64,000 nucleotides of DNA, from NCBI RefSeq assembly GCF_003018255.1, contig NZ_CP027440.1; one strand, written 5' to 3'. This DNA is from Escherichia coli. Its GTDB lineage: Bacteria > Pseudomonadota > Gammaproteobacteria > Enterobacterales > Enterobacteriaceae. The notes beneath the pieces were generated by a model that saw only the letters and a list, made by a program, of their open reading frames with translations, was not told where the DNA came from and made no database searches. Position 1 is the first letter of the stretch, and the number at the start of each line of letters is the position of its first letter. Below, in pieces: positions 4,106-41,710 of the stretch. The position numbers and the translations under genes are program-made.

Positions 4106-5194
4106 TTAGAACTGGTAAACGATACCCACAGCAACGGTGTCGTCAGAACCTACGCCCAGTTTGTTGTCAGAATCGATCTGGTTGATGATGTAGTCAACAT
4201 AGGTGGACATGTTTTTGTTGAAGTAGTAGGTTGCGCCCACTTCAAAGTAGTTAACCAGATCAACATCACCGATACCTTCTACGTCTTTCGCTTTAGATTT
4301 GGTGTAAGCGATGGACGGACGCAGACCGAAATCGAACTGGTATTGCGCAACTAACAGAACGTCTTGCGTTTTGTTGGCGAAGCCGCTGATGTTTGTAAAT
4401 TTATTAGTGATCGGCGTAGCGTTACGGGTTTCACCGTAGTTCGCTGCCAGGTAGATGTTGTTCGCGTCATACTTCAGACCAGTAGCCCACTGTTCAGCTT
4501 TTTTACCGTTGCCAAGAGGTTGAGCTTCTTGCAGGTTGGTACGGTCAGCGGCGCCATAAGCACCAACGATACCAAAGCCTTCGTATTCGTAGCTGATAGA
4601 ACCGCCAACACCGTCGCCGTTAGAGCGGCGTGCAGTGTCACGCTCGTTTTTACCCAGGTACTGAACAGCGAAGTTCAGGCCATCAACCAGACCAAAGAAG
4701 TTGGAGTTACGATAGGTAGCAACGCCGCCAACACGACCAACGAAGAAGTCATCGCTGTATGCCGTGTCACCGCCAAACTCAGGCAGCATATCGGTGTAAC
4801 CCAGTGCATCATAAACCACACCGTAGTTACGGCCGTAATCGAAAGAACCAACGTCAGCGTATTTAAGACCCGCGAATGCCAGACGCGTTTTGTTACCAGT
4901 TTGAGCGTCAGCGCCTTCAGAGTTGTTACCCTGGAAGTTATATTCCCACTGACCATAACCGGTCAGATCGGAATTGATTTGAGTTTCCCCTTTAAAACCA
5001 AGACGGGCATAGGTCATGTCACCATTGCCACCGTAACTGTTTTCACCGTTACCCTTGGAGAAATAATGCAGACCGACAGCTTTACCGTACAGATCTACTT
5101 TGTTGCCATCTTTGTTATAGATTTCTGCAGCGTTTGCAGTACCTGCTACTAACAGAGCAGGGACGATCACTGCCAGAATATTGCGCTTCATCAT
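4106..5194 (-). CDS. ompF: outer membrane porin F
   Basis: 362 aa; [32 protein letters not shown] signal plus mature N-terminus; C-terminal ...VGIVYQF. Confidence 0.97.
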
Positions 5195-17850: not shown

Positions 17851-18956
17851 CGCGTCAGCTTAAGCGCAGTCTTCGGTACACAGCTACAGCAAAGAATGGT
17901 GCCATCATCGCCCATTGCTGATTTTTTCAGCGGCGTGACTTCGCCTTCTAAAAGCTGAACACGGCAACTTCCACAAATGCCCGCGCGGCAAGAATAAGGG
18001 ATACGAATTCCCTGATTTTCTAATTGCTCCAGCAACACCTGCTGGTTATTTCCACGAAATGCCTGTCCCTGCCAGTCAATATCTACATTTGCGTCCGGTT
18101 GTTGCGTGATGTTGACGGTATCATCAGCGGCGGCTGCGCCGTAAATTTTAGCCGGAGCCGTTGCCAGAACTTCCACCTCATCGCCAACGCGAATTACGCC
18201 GCTATTACGGGCAATTAAATTCTGACCAAAATCGACATCGCCGTTATCCTGGGCAGTGCGGAAAGATTGCAATGTTTTTAATGGTTCGCCTGCCGGATGT
18301 TTTTGCCCTTTTTCTGGACTGACGGTGGTGAAAATACAGCGGCTACAAGGTTTAACCACATCAAACACCACATCACCAATGCGAATCACTTTCCAGCTAT
18401 CTTCTTCCCAGGCTGACGCGCCGGAAACCACCAGATTGGGGCGGAATTGCTCCATTTTTACACTGGCCGGACAACGTTGTTGGAGATCACGTAACGAGGC
18501 TTCGTTAGCAAGAAGGTAAGGATAGCCATCAGCAAATGACAGGGGTACAGTGTTGTGGCGTTTCACGCGCCGCGTCATTTGTGGCCCCACCCAGCGCAAC
18601 TGCACTTCGCGGGAGAAAAATCCACTTAGCCATTTGTTGATCGCGTCTGGTGCAATTCGCGCGGTAAAATGTGTGCCCCAAACTTCGGTTGGTGCGTCTT
18701 GTGTGGCGAAATCAGCAAAACGAACATATGCGCTACTGCCATCTGGTGCGGTGAGATGCAAGCCATCATGCACAGGTGAAGGAGTAAACCGTACCATCTG
18801 GGGAAACTGGCGAGCGGTAATAAACGTACCGTCAGGTTCCGTGATCATAAAGATGCGATCGAAGGCCAGACCACTGACATCTGCCAGGGCATGTGTAAGA
18901 CCAATGCCGCGCATCGATTTAACAGGATGAATAAAAAGCCGGGTTAATGTCGCCAC
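17847..18956 (-). CDS. ycbX: MOSC-domain 2Fe-2S protein YcbX
   Basis: 369 aa; C-terminal ferredoxin-like cysteine cluster (CRAGICGSC). Confidence 0.9.
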
Positions 18957-29840: not shown

Positions 29841-30293
29841 ATGAAATATCAACAACTTGAAAATCTTGAAAGCGGTTGGAAATGGAAGTATCTGGTGAAG
29901 AAGCACCGCGAAGGGGAGTTAATCACCCGTTACATAGAAGCCAGTGCCGCCCAGGAAGCCGTCGATGTGTTGCTCTCGCTGGAAAATGAACCCGTGCTGG
30001 TAAATGGCTGGATTGACAAGCATATGAATCCGGAACTGGTCAATCGCATGAAGCAAACCATTCGGGCCAGACGGAAGCGCCATTTTAATGCGGAACATCA
30101 GCATACGCGCAAAAAATCGATCGATCTGGAATTTATTGTCTGGCAACGTCTGGCTGGTCTTGCGCAGCGTCGCGGTAAAACGCTTTCTGAAACGATTGTT
30201 CAGCTGATTGAAGATGCGGAAAACAAAGAGAAATACGCGAATAAAATGTCTTCTTTGAAGCAGGATCTGCAGGCATTGCTGGGTAAGGAATAA
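29841..30293 (+). CDS. matP: macrodomain Ter protein MatP (YcbG)
   Basis: 150 aa; [26 protein letters not shown]. Confidence 0.92.
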
Positions 30294-30325
30294 CTGACGA
30301 AAGTCAGTTCAATTTTCTAAAGACG

Positions 30326-30356
30326 AAAAAAAACCCCGCAGCAGCGGGGTTTTTTA
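30326..30356. terminator. bidirectional terminator between matP and ompA
   Basis: aaaaaaaaccccgc-agca-gcggggtttttta. Confidence 0.8.
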
Positions 30357-30368
30357 CCAGACGAGAAC

Positions 30369-31421
30369 TTAAGCCTGCGGCTGAGTTACAACGTCTTTGA
30401 TGCCTTTAACTTCGATCTCTACGCGACGATCCGGAGCCAGGCAATCGATCAGTGCAGCACGCTGTTTCACGTTGTCACAGGTGTTGCCAGTAACCGGGTT
30501 GGATTCGCCCATACCACGTGCGGAGATTTTGTCTGCCGGGATACCTTTAGAGATCAGGTAATCAACAACGGACTGAGCACGACGCTCGGACAGAGCCTGG
30601 TTATAAGCGTCAGAACCGATGCGGTCAGTGTAACCCAGAACAACTACGGAACCGTCTTTCGGATCCAGGTTGCTCAGCTGGCTGTACAGCTGATCCAGAG
30701 CAGCCTGACCTTCCGGTTTCAGGGTTGCTTTGTTGAAGGTGAACAGAACGTCAGACTTCAGAGTGAAGTGCTTGGTCTGTACTTCCGGTGCCGGAGCTGG
30801 AGCCGGAGCAACTACTGGAGCTGCTTCGCCCTGACCGAAACGGTAGGAAACACCCAGGCTCAGCATGCCGTTGTCCGGACGAGTGCCGATGGTGTGTGCA
30901 TCACCGATGTTGTTGGTCCACTGGTATTCCAGACGGGTAGCGATTTCAGGAGTGATCGCATACTCAACACCGCCAGCGAAGACCGGAGAAACGCCGGTGT
31001 CGTGGTCTTTAAAGGATGCGCCACCAGGTACGTTAGCCTTGGTGTCTGCACGCCATACCATACCACCCAGACGAGTGTAGATGTCCAGATCGTCAGTGAT
31101 TGGGTAACCCAGTTTAGCGGTCAGCTGAACGCCCTGAGCTTTGTATGCGCCGTTGATGTTGTCGCCTTTGTACGGCATACGACCTAACCAGTCGTAACCC
31201 ATTTCAAAGCCAACATACGGGTTAACCTGGTAACCACCAAAAGCACCTGCACCCAGTTGGTTTTCGTGGGTCGGACCATTGTTAGGAATAAAACCAGTGT
31301 CATGGTACTGGGACCAGCCCAGTTTAGCACCAGTGTACCAGGTGTTATCTTTCGGAGCGGCCTGCGCTACGGTAGCGAAACCAGCCAGTGCCACTGCAAT
31401 CGCGATAGCTGTCTTTTTCAT
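30369..31421 (-). CDS. ompA: outer membrane protein A (variant surface-loop allele)
   Basis: ORF track 30369..31508; start at ATG giving [21 protein letters not shown]; APAPAPAP hinge and OmpA-like C-terminal domain. Confidence 0.95.
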
Positions 31422-31776
31422 TTTTTGCGCCTCGTTATCATCCAAAATACGCCATGAATATCTCCAACGAGATAACACGGTTAAATCCTTCACCGGGGAT
31501 CTGCTCAATATTAACTCTACCGATATCTTCGGCTTATGCCGAGCACCCCTGGCGATGTAAAGTCTACAACGTAGTTGAAAACTTACAAGTGTGAACTCCG
31601 TCAGGCATATGAAAAAAAAGTCTTGTATAAGGTACGTTTAATCTTTTTTGTCAGCGACAATTTACAGAAGAAAATCGCGGAAACCGCTTCAGACAAGCCT
31701 CCGCAAGGAAAATTAGTCACGACTGAAAGCATTGGCTGGGCGACAAAAAAAGTTCCAGGATTAATCCTAAATTTAC

Positions 31777-32286
31777 TTAATGATACAAATTAGAGTGAAT
31801 TTTTAGCCCGGAAAGTTGTCTCGTTGCGTGAGAGGATGCGCTTACCGGACGCATAATAAACCCCATAGCGTTACCTTCATTTGCCGCATCAACAAGTTCA
31901 GCATGCTCTTCTGCAGTCAAATCATCTGCCAACCAACCGATCACCACGCTGTAATTGCCCGTGCGTAAAGCGCGAACCATTGACTCCACGGTGTGGCAAG
32001 GGGAGAGCTGGCTAATCTGCATTACTTTCGTTAAGGGTAGCCCAGATGCCTGAACCCATTCGCGACTCAGTTTTTGTTGCGGTGTTAACCAGAGTTGCCA
32101 GCGCGATTGCTGACCGAGTTGCTGTAACAATGGCAACAGTAGAAGTTGCGTCATCATGGGCTGATCTTCGCGATAGACAACTTCACTGATAAGCCCGGCT
32201 GTAGTGTTTTCCGTAGAGACACGCGCAATTTTACTTGCTGCGGATGAGAACGACGAAGAACGATGTGCATAGCCTGAAGTGTACAT
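31777..32286 (-). CDS. sulA: SOS cell division inhibitor SulA
   Basis: ORF track 31777..32292; start giving [20 protein letters not shown]. Confidence 0.95.
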
Positions 32287-32308
32287 AATCAATCCAGCCC
32301 CTGTGAGT

Positions 32309-32328
32309 TACTGTATGAATGTACAGTA
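32309..32328. promoter_or_regulatory. LexA operator (SOS box) of sulA
   Basis: taCTGTatgaatgtACAGta, a near-perfect CTGT-N8-ACAG palindrome 23 bp upstream of sulA start. Confidence 0.85.
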
Positions 32329-32504
32329 CATCCAGTGACGACAAAGATCAACTCTATTTTCGGAAAGAGCCTCGCAAATTTTGTCGTTGGTGACGGGAAA
32401 ACATAAATTAATCTTGCCCCTTAAGAATAAGTTGCCTATTTTCGTAGTTAACGGATCCGTTAATGTGAATCATTCTTTTATGTTATGATTTTAAAAGGAA
32501 TTTT

Positions 32505-33134
32505 ATGAAAAGCCTCTCCTATAAGCGGATCTATAAATCACAAGAATACCTGGCAACGTTGGGCACAATTGAATACCGATCATTGTTTGGTAGTTACAGC
32601 CTGACCGTTGACGACACGGTGTTTGCGATGGTTTCTGATGGTGAGTTGTATCTTCGGGCTTGTGAGCAAAGTGCACAGTACTGTGTAAAACATCCGCCTG
32701 TCTGGCTGACATATAAAAAGTGTGGCCGATCCGTTACCCTCAATTACTATCGGGTTGATGAAAGTCTATGGCGAAATCAACTGAAGCTGGTGCGTCTGTC
32801 GAAATATTCTCTCGATGCAGCGCTGAAAGAGAAAAGCACGCGCAATACCCGGGAAAGACTGAAAGATTTGCCCAATATGTCTTTTCATCTGGAAGCGATT
32901 CTCGGGGAGGTGGGGATTAAGGATGTACGGGCGTTACGTATACTTGGGGCAAAAATGTGTTGGTTGCGACTGCGGCAGCAAAACAGTCTGGTGACAGAAA
33001 AGATTCTGTTTATGCTTGAAGGGGCCATTATCGGTATTCATGAAGCTGCGCTCCCGGTGGCACGCCGCCAGGAGCTTGCAGAATGGGCTGACTCTCTTAC
33101 GCCAAAACAGGAGTTTCCTGCGGAACTTGAGTAA
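32505..33134 (+). CDS. sxy: competence regulator Sxy/TfoX
   Basis: 209 aa; MKSLSYKRIYKSQEYLATLGTIEYRSLFGSYSL. Confidence 0.92.
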   Translation: MKSLSYKRIYKSQEYLATLGTIEYRSLFGSYSLTVDDTVFAMVSDGELYLRACEQSAQYCVKHPPVWLTYKKCGRSVTLNYYRVDESLWRNQLKLVRLSKYSLDAALKEKSTRNTRERLKDLPNMSFHLEAILGEVGIKDVRALRILGAKMCWLRLRQQNSLVTEKILFMLEGAIIGIHEAALPVARRQELAEWADSLTPKQEFPAELE

Positions 33135-35250
33135 TCTGGCGTTGCAGACGACCAATCTCTGGCAGTAATGCAATCAATAACCCAACTTGTTGTACGACCA
33201 GAGGTTCTTTGCTGTCTGCCCGTGGTTCAAGTTGCTGCATCCGCTGTTTCAGGCCAGCTAATGCCTGATTGACGCGTTCTTCATCAGCAGGTTGATGATG
33301 TAGCGCGTCATCAACATAGCAAACTGCGTCATCAAGAAACGCCAGAATTTCAGGATTAGTTAACTGCTCCCGGTGAGCACCGAGGGCTGAGATATAGCTG
33401 GTAAACGTATGGTTAAGGCACAGCAACCGAAACGCGGCTTCGCGAATTTGCGGGGTAACGTTCGGTTCGCTGGACATATTTGATACCACCGACGCCAGTT
33501 CAGCATCACGGTTGTGTGCATCGCGGCGGGCAATACGATACGCCAGACGGTTATCACGCCCCTGATGGTATTGTTCCAGTATGGCATCGAGATACCGGCA
33601 GTTGGCCTCTGTGGCGCGTTCGAGCATTCGCGGCAGATTGCGAAACTTCCAGTCAGGCCAGATGTAGCTCACTGCCGCCCACGCAATGGCACAACCAATC
33701 AGCGTATCGATTACGCGAGGTAACGCCACTTCAAAACCTTCACCCAGCAAGTTGAAACACAGTAGCACCAAAAGTGTGATGAACATCGTTGCATGGGCGT
33801 ATTGCACGTTACGGAAGGCAAAAAAGAGCACGCCGGTAATAACCAGCAGCACCAGCTGCCCTTCCAGTGATGGCACAAACCACAGCACAGGAATACCAAT
33901 TGCGATACCTACCAGCGTACCAATAATCCTTAACTTCAGGCGGTGGCGCGTGGCGTTATAGTTTGGCTGGCAGACAAACAAACTTGTCAGCAAGATCCAA
34001 TACCCGTGATGCATTCCGGTTATCTGAATGATGGCGTAGCCGAAGCACAACACCAGCGACATTCTTACCGCATGACGGAAGAGGGCGGATTCCGGCGTGA
34101 AGTGACGGCTAAGACGCAGCCAGATATCACTCAATCCGTGCGGGCTGTCATCAGCGAGCTCATTTTCGTCATTATTATGGGGCAGTGCCTGGGCCTGTTC
34201 TGATTCAATTGTTGCCAGTTGGGCATCAATGGCACGTAAATTGTTCAGTAAAAATCCCAGTGTTTTGAGTAAATCAGCAGGAGCGCCGTTATCGCGCATC
34301 CGCTCCAGCGCAGCATCAATATGCGTAAAAGCGCGCTCAAAATGCGGATCATGTTGATAAGGCTGACGCAGCAAAATACAGCGTGACAGTTGCTGGCACG
34401 CCTGGCCCTGCATCGACATCAGCCGCTGAAAACGGAACAGCACGTCGCTGTGGCGAAAATGTTCACGCAATGTTTGATATTGAATATGAGAAGAGCTGGC
34501 ACGCTCGTGAATATCCTGTGCGACAAAGTAATAATGCAGTGTGCGACGCGTTCCTCGTTGACCACGATCGCCACGTAAGCGGGTCAGCAGCGAGAGTTTC
34601 GTCTGATTCAATGTCGCCATCAGCTGACCGTTGGCGAGAGCCAAATCGTACAGCGGTGCCTGGCTTTCATCTTCAATATCAGGATCAAACATGCGCGACT
34701 TGAGCTCAAGATAACGCGCCAGTTGTTCATAGCAACGCGCCAGGTTGTCCTGCAGCGGGCGGACCGGGAACAGCAGATGACCAATAAGTGTCAGGACGTT
34801 GTACCAGACGGCACCGGCCAGAAGATACATCGGCTGCTGATACCAGTGCTCATACAGTGATGTTCCCAACATAGTGTAAATGGCGATCAGCAATGCACCG
34901 AAGGCAATTGTTGCATAGCGTTGACCCAGACCGCCGAGCAAAATGAAGCCGCTGGTAGAGAGCGTTAAGCCAATCGCAAATAGCCAGGGCCAGGGAAACA
35001 GCAATTCTACTGAGGCCGAGGCGATAAAAAAGCAGAACAGCGTAATGATGAGGTTACGCAAACGTCCCGCCAGTCGGTCATCGAGATCGGTCAGCGCCGC
35101 TGCCACCATCCCAAGCGTCAGCGGAATCGTCAGTTTTACATCACCCAGCCACCACGGAAACGCTGTGGTTCCACAAAGCGCAATAAAAATACGCGCGTAA
35201 TACAGCCAGGCGCTGTTCCAGGTATAGCGTTTGAGCAAAGGACTTAGCAT
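33097..35250 (-). CDS. yccS: inner membrane protein YccS (putative efflux/FUSC-like transporter)
   Basis: ORF track 33097..35259 (720 aa); two in-frame ATGs 9 nt apart, so start is ambiguous (35250 or 35259). Confidence 0.88.
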   Translation of the reverse strand: MLSPLLKRYTWNSAWLYYARIFIALCGTTAFPWWLGDVKLTIPLTLGMVAAALTDLDDRLAGRLRNLIITLFCFFIASASVELLFPWPWLFAIGLTLSTSGFILLGGLGQRYATIAFGALLIAIYTMLGTSLYEHWYQQPMYLLAGAVWYNVLTLIGHLLFPVRPLQDNLARCYEQLARYLELKSRMFDPDIEDESQAPLYDLALANGQLMATLNQTKLSLLTRLRGDRGQRGTRRTLHYYFVAQDIHERASSSHIQYQTLREHFRHSDVLFRFQRLMSMQGQACQQLSRCILLRQPYQHDPHFERAFTHIDAALERMRDNGAPADLLKTLGFLLNNLRAIDAQLATIESEQAQALPHNNDENELADDSPHGLSDIWLRLSRHFTPESALFRHAVRMSLVLCFGYAIIQITGMHHGYWILLTSLFVCQPNYNATRHRLKLRIIGTLVGIAIGIPVLWFVPSLEGQLVLLVITGVLFFAFRNVQYAHATMFITLLVLLCFNLLGEGFEVALPRVIDTLIGCAIAWAAVSYIWPDWKFRNLPRMLERATEANCRYLDAILEQYHQGRDNRLAYRIARRDAHNRDAELASVVSNMSSEPNVTPQIREAAFRLLCLNHTFTSYISALGAHREQLTNPEILAFLDDAVCYVDDALHHQPADEERVNQALAGLKQRMQQLEPRADSKEPLVVQQVGLLIALLPEIGRLQRQITQVPQETPVLA

Positions 35251-35268
35251 AAAGGCCATATTAGTGGA

Positions 35269-35715
35269 TTATTGGAAACGACGACGTGCATTGGCTTCGC
35301 GCGCAGCTTGCGCTGTTTCTACCGATACCACGCGACGACCGACCGGCCATAGTGCAATAGCGGCAATTTTAAAGTTCGCAATACCGACAGGAATGCCAAT
35401 GATGGAAATACATTGTGCGATGCCCGTTGCAATGTGCATCAGGCATAACCACCAGCCAAAGAAAATCAGCCAGAAAATATTCAATACCGTACCGCCAGTA
35501 TTTAGCAGCACATTTTTGCCAGCCGGGTTCAGTTCATCGACATGAATAGCTTCATTGCCATAAGGCACCAGAGACAGTTTGGTGATCTCCCAGCAGGATC
35601 GTGTCAGTGGTAAGGTAAAAATCAGCACAATACTGACCAGAGTCGCCAACAGCCAGCCCAGAGTGGTGGCAAATCCGCCAAGCACAAAGTTCAGAATGTT
35701 CAAAACGGTACGCAT
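35269..35715 (-). CDS. yccF: inner membrane protein YccF
   Basis: 148 aa hydrophobic; MRTVLNILNFVLGGFATTLGWLL. Confidence 0.9.
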   Translation of the reverse strand: MRTVLNILNFVLGGFATTLGWLLATLVSIVLIFTLPLTRSCWEITKLSLVPYGNEAIHVDELNPAGKNVLLNTGGTVLNIFWLIFFGWWLCLMHIATGIAQCISIIGIPVGIANFKIAAIALWPVGRRVVSVETAQAAREANARRRFQ

Positions 35716-35837
35716 AAAACCTCGCTTTACTGTGGTTTTCAGTAATGGGCGGCAATTGTAACGTTTTTTTGGGCTGGAGCACGTTTTCTCTGACGGTTAC
35801 ACTGATAAGAAATAATTTCGTGTGGATCTACAGAGTC

Positions 35838-37892
35838 ATGGAACTGAAAGCGACAACGCTTGGAAAACGTCTGGCACAGCACCCTTACGATCGGGCGGTG
35901 ATCCTCAATGCCGGGATTAAAGTCTCCGGCGATCGCCACGAATACCTTATTCCTTTCAATCAATTACTGGCGATTCACTGTAAGCGCGGTCTGGTATGGG
36001 GCGAACTGGAGTTTGTACTGCCGGACGAAAAAGTGGTGCGTCTGCACGGCACCGAATGGGGCGAGACGCAGCGTTTTTACCATCATCTTGATGCTCACTG
36101 GCGGCGGTGGAGTGGCGAGATGAGCGAAATTGCGTCTGGCGTTTTACGTCAGCAACTGGATTTGATTGCCACGCGCACCGGAGAAAATAAATGGCTGACG
36201 CGTGAGCAAACCTCTGGCGTGCAGCAACAAATCCGCCAGGCTTTGTCGGCGTTACCATTGCCGGTTAACCGACTGGAAGAATTCGATAACTGCCGTGAGG
36301 CGTGGCGTAAATGTCAGGCCTGGTTGAAGGACATTGAAGGCGCTCGGTTGCAGTATAATCAGGCGTATACCGAAGCCATGCTTACCGAGTATGCGGATTT
36401 TTTCCGCCAGGTCGAGTCTTCACCGCTGAATCCGGCGCAGGCCCGGGCAGTCGTTAATGGCGAGCATTCTCTGTTAGTGCTGGCAGGTGCAGGAAGCGGA
36501 AAAACGTCGGTGCTGGTGGCCCGTGCTGGCTGGTTACTGGCGCGTGGTGAAGCGTCTCCTGAGCAAATTTTATTGCTGGCGTTTGGTCGCAAAGCCGCTG
36601 AAGAGATGCACGAGCGTATTCGAGAACGACTACATACCGAAGACATTACCGCACGCACGTTTCATGCGCTGGCGCTGCATATTATTCAGCAGGGCAGCAA
36701 AAAAGTTCCGATAGTCAGCAAACTGGAAAATGATACCGCTGCCCGTCATGAACTTTTTATTGCTGAGTGGCGCAAGCAATGCAGCGAAAAGAAAGCGCAG
36801 GCGAAGGGCTGGCGGCAATGGCTGACGGAAGAAATGCAGTGGTCAGTGCCAGAAGGTAATTTCTGGGATGATGAAAAATTACAGCGTCGTCTTGCCTCTC
36901 GCCTCGATCGCTGGGTAAGTCTGATGCGGATGCACGGTGGTGCACAGGCAGAAATGATTGCCAGTGCACCCGAAGAGATTCGCGATCTGTTCAGTAAACG
37001 TATCAAGTTGATGGCCCCGTTATTAAAAGCCTGGAAAGGTGCGCTGAAGGCAGAAAACGCTGTCGATTTTTCGGGCCTTATTCACCAGGCGATTGTGATT
37101 CTGGAGAAAGGTCGCTTTATCAGCCCGTGGAAGCATATTCTGGTTGATGAATTTCAGGATATCTCGCCGCAGCGTGCAGCGTTGTTAGCGGCATTACGCA
37201 AGCAAAATAGTCAAACGACGTTGTTCGCTGTTGGTGATGACTGGCAGGCGATTTACCGATTCAGCGGTGCGCAAATGTCGCTTACCACGGCTTTCCATGA
37301 AAACTTTGGTGAAGGTGATCGCTGTGATTTAGACACGACCTACCGTTTTAACAGTCGTATCGGTGAGGTGGCAAACAGGTTTATTCAGCAGAACCCAGGC
37401 CAGCTTAAAAAGCCGCTAAACAGCTTAACCAATGGAGACAAAAAAGCCGTCACGTTATTGGATGAGGGTCAACTTGACGCTTTGCTGGATAAACTCTCTG
37501 GTTATGCCAAACCGGAAGAGCGCATTCTGATCCTGGCGCGTTACCATCACATGAGGCCTGCCAGCCTGGAAAAAGCAGCAACACGCTGGCCGAAGTTGCA
37601 AATCGACTTTATGACCATTCATGCCAGCAAAGGGCAACAGGCGGATTACGTCATCATCGTTGGCTTGCAGGAGGGGAGTGATGGTTTTCCGGCTGCGGCG
37701 CGGGAGTCGATTATGGAAGAGGCGCTACTGCCACCGGTTGAGGATTTCCCGGACGCTGAAGAACGGCGGTTAATGTACGTGGCGCTGACCCGGGCACGCC
37801 ATCGGGTATGGGCACTGTTTAACAAAGAGAATCCCTCTCCCTTTGTGGAAATACTGAAAAATCTGGATGTGCCGGTGGCGAGAAAACCGTAA
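35838..37892 (+). CDS. helD: DNA helicase IV
   Basis: ORF track 35745..37892; start at ATG 35838 giving MELKATTLGKRLAQHPYDRAVIL; Walker A GAGSGKT. Confidence 0.93.
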   Translation: MELKATTLGKRLAQHPYDRAVILNAGIKVSGDRHEYLIPFNQLLAIHCKRGLVWGELEFVLPDEKVVRLHGTEWGETQRFYHHLDAHWRRWSGEMSEIASGVLRQQLDLIATRTGENKWLTREQTSGVQQQIRQALSALPLPVNRLEEFDNCREAWRKCQAWLKDIEGARLQYNQAYTEAMLTEYADFFRQVESSPLNPAQARAVVNGEHSLLVLAGAGSGKTSVLVARAGWLLARGEASPEQILLLAFGRKAAEEMHERIRERLHTEDITARTFHALALHIIQQGSKKVPIVSKLENDTAARHELFIAEWRKQCSEKKAQAKGWRQWLTEEMQWSVPEGNFWDDEKLQRRLASRLDRWVSLMRMHGGAQAEMIASAPEEIRDLFSKRIKLMAPLLKAWKGALKAENAVDFSGLIHQAIVILEKGRFISPWKHILVDEFQDISPQRAALLAALRKQNSQTTLFAVGDDWQAIYRFSGAQMSLTTAFHENFGEGDRCDLDTTYRFNSRIGEVANRFIQQNPGQLKKPLNSLTNGDKKAVTLLDEGQLDALLDKLSGYAKPEERILILARYHHMRPASLEKAATRWPKLQIDFMTIHASKGQQADYVIIVGLQEGSDGFPAAARESIMEEALLPPVEDFPDAEERRLMYVALTRARHRVWALFNKENPSPFVEILKNLDVPVARKP

Positions 37893-41431: not shown

Positions 41432-41710
41432 ATGTCGAAAGTCTGCATAATTGCCTGGGTTTACGGGCGAGTTCAGGGCGTAGGATTCCGCTACACCACG
41501 CAGTACGAAGCGAAAAAACTGGGACTAACCGGGTACGCCAAAAATCTTGACGATGGCAGCGTGGAAGTGGTTGCCTGCGGTGACGAAGGGCAGGTGGAAA
41601 AATTAATGCAGTGGTTAAAAAGTGGCGGCCCGCGTTCAGCGCGTGTGGAACGGGTGCTTAGCGAGCCGCATCATCCCTCCGGGGAGTTAACGGATTTTCG
41701 TATCCGTTAA
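41432..41710 (+). CDS. acyP: acylphosphatase (YccX)
   Basis: ORF track 41219..41710; start at ATG 41432 giving [27 protein letters not shown] (acylphosphatase signature); 92 aa. Confidence 0.9.

Follow-up and report, generated by a model that had tools for sequence, protein, structure and literature searches.

The genes sxy (tfoX) and yccS of Escherichia coli converge on each other, and their coding sequences run into one another at the 3' ends. We analysed this junction within a window of 64,000 nucleotides from contig NZ_CP027440.1, in which the chromosomal gene order is ycbZ-matP-ompA-sulA-sxy-yccS-yccF-helD. Sxy is the co-activator of the CRP-S regulon, and YccS, the product of the distal gene of the yccF-yccS operon, is a putative inner-membrane transporter of the FUSC-like YccS family, as indicated by Pfam matches to FUSC-like, FUSC_2 and FUSC. 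The features at the junction are as follows:

32505..33134, + strand, sxy (tfoX) coding sequence, 209 aa (ORF list, Pfam and RefSeq, identical)
33097..35259, - strand, yccS coding sequence, 720 aa (ORF list, Pfam, TIGR01666 and RefSeq)
35269..35715, - strand, yccF, the upstream gene in the yccF-yccS transcription unit converging on sxy (annotation and Conway et al.)
33097..33134, both strands, 38-bp shared stretch: Sxy codons 198-209 and the stop on the + strand; YccS codons 710-720, the stop and part of the I709 codon on the - strand
33087..33132, both strands, 46-nt inter-core spacer bounded by the codons of the final conserved residues, W194 of Sxy (33084-33086) and I709 of YccS (33133-33135)

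Both the ORF list and the sequence place the 3' ends of the two genes on opposite strands of the same 38 bp. The + strand carries the sxy stop, TAA, at 33132-33134; the yccS stop is a TAA read from 33099 to 33097, which appears as TTA on the + strand. The first-pass annotation of this DNA had reported an overlap of this length at these coordinates, and the ORF list, the sequence and RefSeq all bear it out. The 38-bp overlap is identical in three RefSeq records, namely, those of an identical strain, of a 92%-identical strain (the most divergent in a spread E. coli sample) and of K-12 MG1655. In the latter, sxy occupies 1021138..1021767 (+ strand) and yccS 1021730..1023883 (- strand), with the yccS start annotated three codons later, resulting in a protein of 717 aa. 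The region was found in 5425 of the 5426 complete E. coli genomes, and the stops are identical throughout the Escherichia loci examined.

Both members of this convergent overlapping pair are real protein-coding genes in the frames given above, rather than artefacts of 3' extension. In Pfam, Sxy residues 14-194 are covered by TfoX_N (14-106) and TfoX_C (116-194); no NCBIfam model matched Sxy. The curated NCBIfam model TIGR01666 ('YCCS') matches YccS residues 11-709 over the full profile length. The tails, Sxy 198-209 beyond TfoX_C and YccS 710-720 beyond TIGR01666, thus lie outside the family models. The first-pass annotation had named a wrongly annotated stop as the finding that would undo its claim. 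Such a mis-called stop is excluded because both frames are fixed by homology nearly to their ends, up to residue 194 of 209 in Sxy and 709 of 720 in YccS, and a stop codon, unlike a start codon, is unambiguous once the frame is known. Many convergent overlaps longer than 60 bp are indeed 3'-extension artefacts (Pallejà 2008, PMC2478687), but 38 bp falls below this class, and nothing specific to sxy-yccS was found to point that way. Given also the ortholog alignments and the fact that identical stops in all Escherichia loci examined would call for a common error in thousands of independent assemblies, the probability that the overlap stems from a wrong stop or frame appears negligible. The overlap between sxy and yccS is therefore confirmed as real; it is also already known, as it sits in the reference annotation.

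Two further observations concern the surroundings of the junction. In the first 50 kb of the window, three of the nine convergent junctions overlap, namely, zapC/ycbX (4 bp), sxy/yccS (38 bp) and yccX/tusE (4 bp). A search for the CRP-S core TGCGA-N6-TCGCA with up to two mismatches returned 38 matches against 43 expected, none of them in the sxy promoter region.

Variation of the junction across species

Scanning one genome per species yielded 80 loci from Escherichia, Salmonella, Citrobacter, Enterobacter, Lelliottia, Leclercia, Kosakonia, Kluyvera, Buttiauxella, Trabulsiella and others. The overlap is present in 76 of these species loci, measuring 4-47 nt in 73 of them and 80 nt in three Trabulsiella, the only clade in which Sxy extends on. 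The overlaps that stay within the spacer come in lengths of 4, 7, 11, 14, 16, 20, 23, 32, 35, 38, 41, 44 and 47 nt. The four loci lacking an overlap comprise two Kluyvera, with abutting genes in one and an 11-nt gap in the other, one lineage whose spacer measures 249 nt and another in which a 2.3-kb insertion carrying two genes separates sxy from yccS.

The distance between the two conserved cores was measured in 69 sequences that could be anchored on the Sxy W194 codon and the YccS motif LLPEIxRLQxQ[IV]. It amounts to 46 nt in 47 sequences, 41 nt in 11 and 47 nt in eight, with distances of 40, 37 and 43 nt found once each. The 46-nt spacer is stable in Escherichia, Salmonella, Citrobacter, Enterobacter and Lelliottia, and three of the five changes in spacer length are multiples of 3. 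In E. coli, both stop codons and both non-conserved tails fall inside this 46-nt spacer.

Beyond the Enterobacteriaceae, sxy and yccS overlap by 26 nt in the Erwiniaceae (Tatumella, Rosenbergiella). No overlap is found in Proteus, where a 70-nt gap holds a 19-bp hairpin (z = -5.3 and -5.1 for the two strands), or in Providencia, where a 95-nt gap holds a 13-bp hairpin. Because Proteus and Providencia keep the pair with a spacer, the convergent arrangement is older than the overlap. The Enterobacteriaceae lineage with the 249-nt spacer likewise has a hairpin past each stop (z = -5.8 and -3.0). Overall, convergent synteny and a missing intergenic terminator persist across the Enterobacteriaceae and Erwiniaceae, and the overlap characterises the lineages of the two families that were sampled; hairpins occur where the spacer gives room for them, as in Proteus, Providencia and the one Enterobacteriaceae lineage.

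In an alignment of 15 orthologs, W194 is the last invariant residue of Sxy, and the tail that follows varies in both sequence and length. The tails reach 7 to 15 residues past W194 in Sxy and 1 to 14 residues past the conserved core in YccS, and their sequences are almost wholly different between genera. When variability was computed column by column on an ungapped alignment of the junctions with 46-nt spacing, a 3-base periodicity in the sxy frame was apparent to the left of 33086 and one in the yccS frame to the right of 33135. Between 33099 and 33133, nearly all columns are variable and the codon periodicity is lost, the columns of the overlap being the most variable of the junction. What conservation there is sits in a few second codon positions at the extreme edges of both cores. 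According to the codon-position table, the overlap is in the (123:132) phase, in which a synonymous change in one gene always alters the protein encoded by the other. Given that the wobble base of each gene lies opposite the second base of its partner, conserving both peptides would require conservation of the DNA itself, which is not seen.

These patterns bear on whether the shared DNA might be a constrained dual-coding segment, with both tails needed, for instance, as a degradation or interaction signal of Sxy. Such a role fits the weakly conserved columns 33097 and 33100 (Sxy L198 and the second base of codon 199), the confinement of tail lengths to the spacer and the predominance of in-frame indels among the length changes. 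Nevertheless, we regard this possibility as very improbable, considering that both tails lie outside the curated family models, that they diverge between genera almost entirely in sequence and also in length, and that almost all columns of the overlap vary without codon periodicity. Furthermore, the published mutations that alter Sxy function are all near the N-terminus, and for the C-terminus the literature offers only these N-terminal mutations and a 1-122 truncation.

We then considered how often an overlap would arise by chance. When we randomised the 46 nt separating the conserved cores and left the E. coli flanks intact, 83-86% of the trials gave overlapping ORFs and 68-73% an overlap of at least 38 nt. 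The median was 86-92 nt, and the real overlaps are, if anything, shorter. The overlap is therefore not beyond chance, and the non-random part is the short spacing. The shorter-than-random lengths are consistent with ordinary selection against long C-terminal extensions. Both stops nearly always fall within the spacer, whereas the ORFs of the random model often run further. Taken together, the stable spacer, the in-frame length changes and the confined stops show some selection on tail length or compactness, so that the junction is not fully neutral. The comparison points to a constraint on length or compactness rather than on sequence.

Transcript ends at the junction

Three features bear on where transcription of the two genes might end:

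33120..33108, - strand, small hairpin CAGGAAACUCCUG followed by a UUUU run at 33107..33104, located before the yccS stop (minimum-free-energy folds)
32891..32968, - strand, C-rich, G-poor tract, candidate rut site, 32 C and 9 G in 78 nt (composition scan)
33668..33745, + strand, weaker tract with C exceeding G, 30 C and 13 G

The first-pass annotation held that the junction contains no intergenic DNA, so that either polymerase enters the coding region of the partner gene before reaching its own stop, and that there is no room for a terminator. The coordinates agree with the former statement, and the latter can be extended in that no intrinsic terminator is embedded in the junction either. A terminator consensus scan found none in 33000-33300 on either strand and none on the - strand from the yccS stop to 31700. 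The nearest terminator-like site on the + strand, at 33460-33475, is weak, and the total count returned by the scan is no higher than that for shuffled sequence. The 67-nt junction folds no better than its shuffles, with z scores of 0.0 and -1.0 for the + and - strands, respectively; across the other species, z ranges from about -3 to +1.8. RNAalifold found no consensus pairs in an ungapped alignment of 44 junctions, and an Rfam scan of 30000-37000 at E<=1 gave no match in or near the overlap. The only Rfam matches were sub-threshold ones around 30280-30450. A small hairpin that seemed by eye to recur in several genera was supported neither by the folds nor by RNAalifold. The stable G+C-rich hairpin and U-tract that define an intrinsic (Rho-independent) terminator at a transcript end are thus absent from the junction.

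The closest approach to such a signal is the CAGGAAACUCCUG hairpin. If it acted as an intrinsic terminator of yccS, the yccFS transcripts would barely invade sxy. The hairpin and its U4 tail are present in the window sequence and in the minimum-free-energy folds, and among the E. coli genes that take part in convergent overlaps, about 20% have been predicted to have an intrinsic terminator inside the partner (Lillo and Krakauer, PMC2174442). However, the stem has only 5-6 bp and the tail four U, the consensus scan did not call it, and the U-run is UUUC in other Escherichia lineages. The fold z scores and the lack of consensus pairs given above speak against it as well. Moreover, termination upstream of the yccS stop would yield non-stop mRNAs. 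We judge that the hairpin is not a functional terminator, and its embedding as the yccS terminator is highly improbable.

With neither intergenic DNA nor an embedded intrinsic terminator, the sxy and yccFS transcripts necessarily extend into the coding sequence of the partner gene. Antisense RNA that is no longer translated after ribosome release is a classical substrate of Rho. The most conspicuous tract of the composition scan, 32891..32968, lies 128-205 nt downstream of the yccS stop, opposite sxy codons ~129-155. Its C/G ratio of 3.44 is reached by only 0.026% of the 78-nt segments on both strands of the 64-kb window, and ratios of at least 2 occur at a similar distance on the yccS-sense strand in most genera. 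For sxy read-through, the C/G ratio stays at roughly 1 from 33135 to about 33600, and the first rut-like composition is that of the 33668..33745 tract, which lies antisense to yccS at a distance of 533 nt from the sxy stop and where C/G peaks at 2.3. A rut-like stretch of ~70-80 nt downstream of the stop is thus found on the - strand, and a much weaker one on the + strand.

These compositions suggest that the 32891..32968 tract is a candidate rut site at which yccFS transcripts would be ended inside sxy. We infer a role for Rho solely from base composition, which is itself partly dictated by the conserved Sxy amino acids encoded on the opposite strand: the yccFS read-through is C-rich in part because the sxy codons on the other strand are G-rich. 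The Term-seq tables of Adams 2021 contain no sxy or yccS rows.

Interpretation and relation to known systems

The sxy-yccS junction is probably an ordinary case, already in the annotation, of two genuine genes overlapping tail to tail, which arose as stop codons moved neutrally within a very short spacer. Across the Enterobacteriaceae, the conserved cores end at W194 of Sxy and I709 of YccS and face each other over ~46 nt, each poorly conserved C-terminal tail reading into the spacer until the first stop. So short a spacer usually leaves the two tails with DNA in common, which in E. coli amounts to 38 bp. Both transcripts would most probably be ended by Rho after ribosome release. For yccFS, Rho is expected to act at the C-rich tract ~130-205 nt inside sxy, which makes the testable prediction that these transcripts end by Rho within sxy, near 32750-32890; the yccFS RNA would then be antisense to roughly the last 200-350 nt of sxy. 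The sxy RNA might similarly be ended by Rho several hundred nt into yccS. Head-on collision of polymerases, a published way to end convergent transcription (bioRxiv 10.1101/2022.10.23.513370), may contribute.

In published RNA-seq analyses, the sxy and yccFS transcripts were found to converge or overlap (Conway 2014, PMC4161252; ExcludonFinder, PMC12288877). Convergent E. coli operons normally have complementary 3' ends: these occur in 276 of the 370 examined (~75%), with a mean of 286 nt (Conway 2014, PMC4161252). ExcludonFinder lists sxy-yccS among 165 convergent excludons detected in at least half of 58 E. coli samples, and 146 of the 165 pairs were attributed to predicted terminators inside the neighbouring transcription unit (Sanmartin 2025, PMC12288877). 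Our search of the literature on sxy antisense transcription and on yccS and yccF found no regulatory consequence reported for the pair beyond the overlaps described in these two studies.

The first-pass annotation had suggested that, through antisense transcription, the competence regulator and the transporter might interfere with each other. Such regulation is plausible, but the comparative data do not favour it; mutual interference between sxy and yccFS would most likely be a weak by-product, and the variability of the overlap together with its repeated loss argues against antisense interference as a selected function. In its strongest form, the pair would be a selected convergent excludon, in which the absence of a terminator is maintained and yccFS and sxy transcription are mutually repressive, whether by colliding polymerases or by RNase III cutting the 3' duplex, so that expression is mutually exclusive. 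That sxy-yccS belongs to the core set of ExcludonFinder, with detection in at least 50% of the 58 RNA-seq samples (PMC12288877), agrees with this possibility, yet adds little, because a pair with overlapping coding sequences scores automatically once both genes are transcribed. The convergent synteny without an intergenic terminator that is kept in Enterobacteriaceae and Erwiniaceae, and the stable 46-nt spacing, would also fit, and higher synteny has been reported for excludon pairs than for other adjacent genes. Nevertheless, sequence conservation across the junction is lowest in the overlap, which in several genera is reduced to 4-7 nt or absent altogether, two lineages carry the 249-nt spacer or the 2.3-kb insertion, and the Morganellaceae retain the pair with a hairpin-bearing spacer. 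Furthermore, 75% of convergent operons overlap with no known consequence, and our literature search found no data on reciprocal expression, dsRNA or RNase III for sxy-yccS. We therefore consider a selected excludon unlikely.

Related to it, and still less likely, is a compact, terminator-less junction that has been selected as a switch gated by Rho or by collision. Were this the case, compromised Rho or translation would let yccFS antisense transcription proceed through all of sxy, silencing the competence co-activator, and continue into the co-oriented sulA-ompA, and induced sxy transcription would damp yccFS. The finding itself matters little; the gene overlap is in the reference annotation, and the transcript overlap has already been published. 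The comparative picture has a modest value in illustrating the origin of tail-to-tail overlaps, with a constant 46 nt between the cores, drifting stops, no embedded terminator, and hairpins in sister families wherever there is a spacer. Given that sxy regulation in E. coli is incompletely understood, the junction would gain interest only if separating the two genes changed the output of Sxy.

Among the known systems to which the junction can be compared is Rho-dependent termination of untranslated RNA. Work by Peters and colleagues in 2012 reportedly described the suppression of antisense transcription by Rho, and a 2018 study by Dar and Sorek is said to have dealt with Rho-dependent termination downstream of stop codons. 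As in those settings, the RNA past either stop is untranslated and antisense, and the yccFS read-through is exceptionally C-rich and G-poor; at sxy/yccS, however, the likeness is one of composition only, derived at least in part from the G-rich sxy codons.

Bidirectional intrinsic terminators share the setting of converging polymerases that meet at gene ends, and such terminators between convergent genes were reportedly a subject of the SEnd-seq work of Ju and colleagues in 2019. The Proteus spacer resembles them, as its 19-bp hairpin folds equally well on both strands. By contrast, the E. coli junction does not belong to this class because it has no hairpin between A and U tracts, and the genera with 46-nt spacers have no conserved structure in common.

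Convergent excludons (PMC4161252; PMC12288877) are similar in that at least 38 nt of the sxy and yccS transcripts are bound to be complementary. Whereas most excludon pairs overlap in their 3' UTRs, sxy and yccS overlap in their coding sequences, with no terminator-like hairpin, and mutually exclusive expression or RNase III dependence is unreported for them in the literature searched.

The junction matches the tail-to-tail overlaps of prokaryotic genes (Rogozin 2002; PMC2174442; PMC2478687). In both, bona fide genes on opposite strands share a short stretch (<60 bp) in the commonest phase, (123:132) being the most frequent among convergent overlaps of 5 nt or more (Lillo and Krakauer, PMC2174442). 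The same study counted 58 convergent coding-sequence overlaps in E. coli and attributed them to stop-codon mutation (Lillo and Krakauer 2007), and the sxy and yccS stops shift between relatives as this model expects. The pair is thus one of about 58 in E. coli, and nothing essential sets it apart. Its 38 bp exceed the 4-bp overlaps that are so common, but it is the presence of the overlap across the Enterobacteriaceae and Erwiniaceae, rather than its length, that is unusually widespread.

Boundaries of the sxy and yccS reading frames

Within the 38 bp common to the 3' ends of both genes, the stop codon of sxy (TAA, 33132-33134) has two bases in common with the codon for I709 of YccS (33133-33135), as read directly from the window sequence. 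I709 is the final residue within TIGR01666, the YccS family model. Because the two codons share bases, the end of the sxy ORF coincides exactly with the start of the conserved part of yccS.

At the other end of yccS, the annotated start varies between records (window 35250-35259). The PGAP records and the ORF list place it at the ATG at 35259, yielding a protein of 720 aa, and in K-12 MG1655 it is annotated three codons further downstream, yielding 717 aa. The match of YccS to TIGR01666 begins only from residue 11.

The strand opposite sxy also carries the candidate Rho-utilisation region:

32891-32968, - strand: 78-nt tract rich in C (32) and poor in G (9), antisense to sxy codons ~129-155

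In a composition scan of the 64 kb, this tract proved exceptional, falling within the top 0.026% of windows; another window of the same 64 kb exceeds it, with a C/G ratio of 4.67.

The junction in other species

The arrangement of the two 3' ends differs among related loci (coordinates are those of each locus). In Enterobacteriaceae bacterium UBA5654 (L050, 4625-4873), sxy and yccS do not overlap and lie 249 nt apart; the spacer contains a 12-bp G+C-rich hairpin past the sxy stop (fold z-score against shuffled sequence, -5.8) and an 11-12-bp hairpin past the yccS stop (z -3.0). In Superficieibacter electus (L052, 4616-6901), the genes are separated by a 2.3-kb insertion with two ORFs of 200 and 425 aa, both on the - strand, the longer of which looks like a multi-pass membrane protein. 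In Trabulsiella (L048, L066 and L074, about 4584-4663), Sxy is lengthened to 220 aa and the overlap therefore reaches 80 nt; this is the sole clade in which a tail enters the conserved core of the partner.

Two metagenome contigs (L089 and L090) encode a distant Sxy homologue (37% identity) with sulA kept upstream. Downstream of this homologue there is no yccS, just two tiny called ORFs followed by unrelated genes. Thus, the sulA-sxy link is kept in a lineage without the sxy-yccS link.

Neighbouring elements and other convergent overlaps

Reading of the sequence between sulA and sxy revealed one further element:

32309-32328: palindrome TACTGTATGAATGTACAGTA (CTG-N10-CAG), sulA-sxy intergenic region, immediately upstream of sulA

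Judging from its sequence, this palindrome appears to be sulA's LexA (SOS) box. Around the convergent matP/ompA junction, sub-threshold Rfam matches cluster on both strands at 30280-30450 and include Leu_leader, istR, rimP, RsmY and other families; most likely, the cluster reflects a strong terminator hairpin rather than the matched families.

The window contains two other convergent coding-sequence overlaps:

18003-18006: zapC/ycbX, 4 bp
41706-41709: yccX/tusE, 4 bp

Both pairs are present in the list of convergent excludons compiled from RNA-seq in the ExcludonFinder study (PMC12288877).
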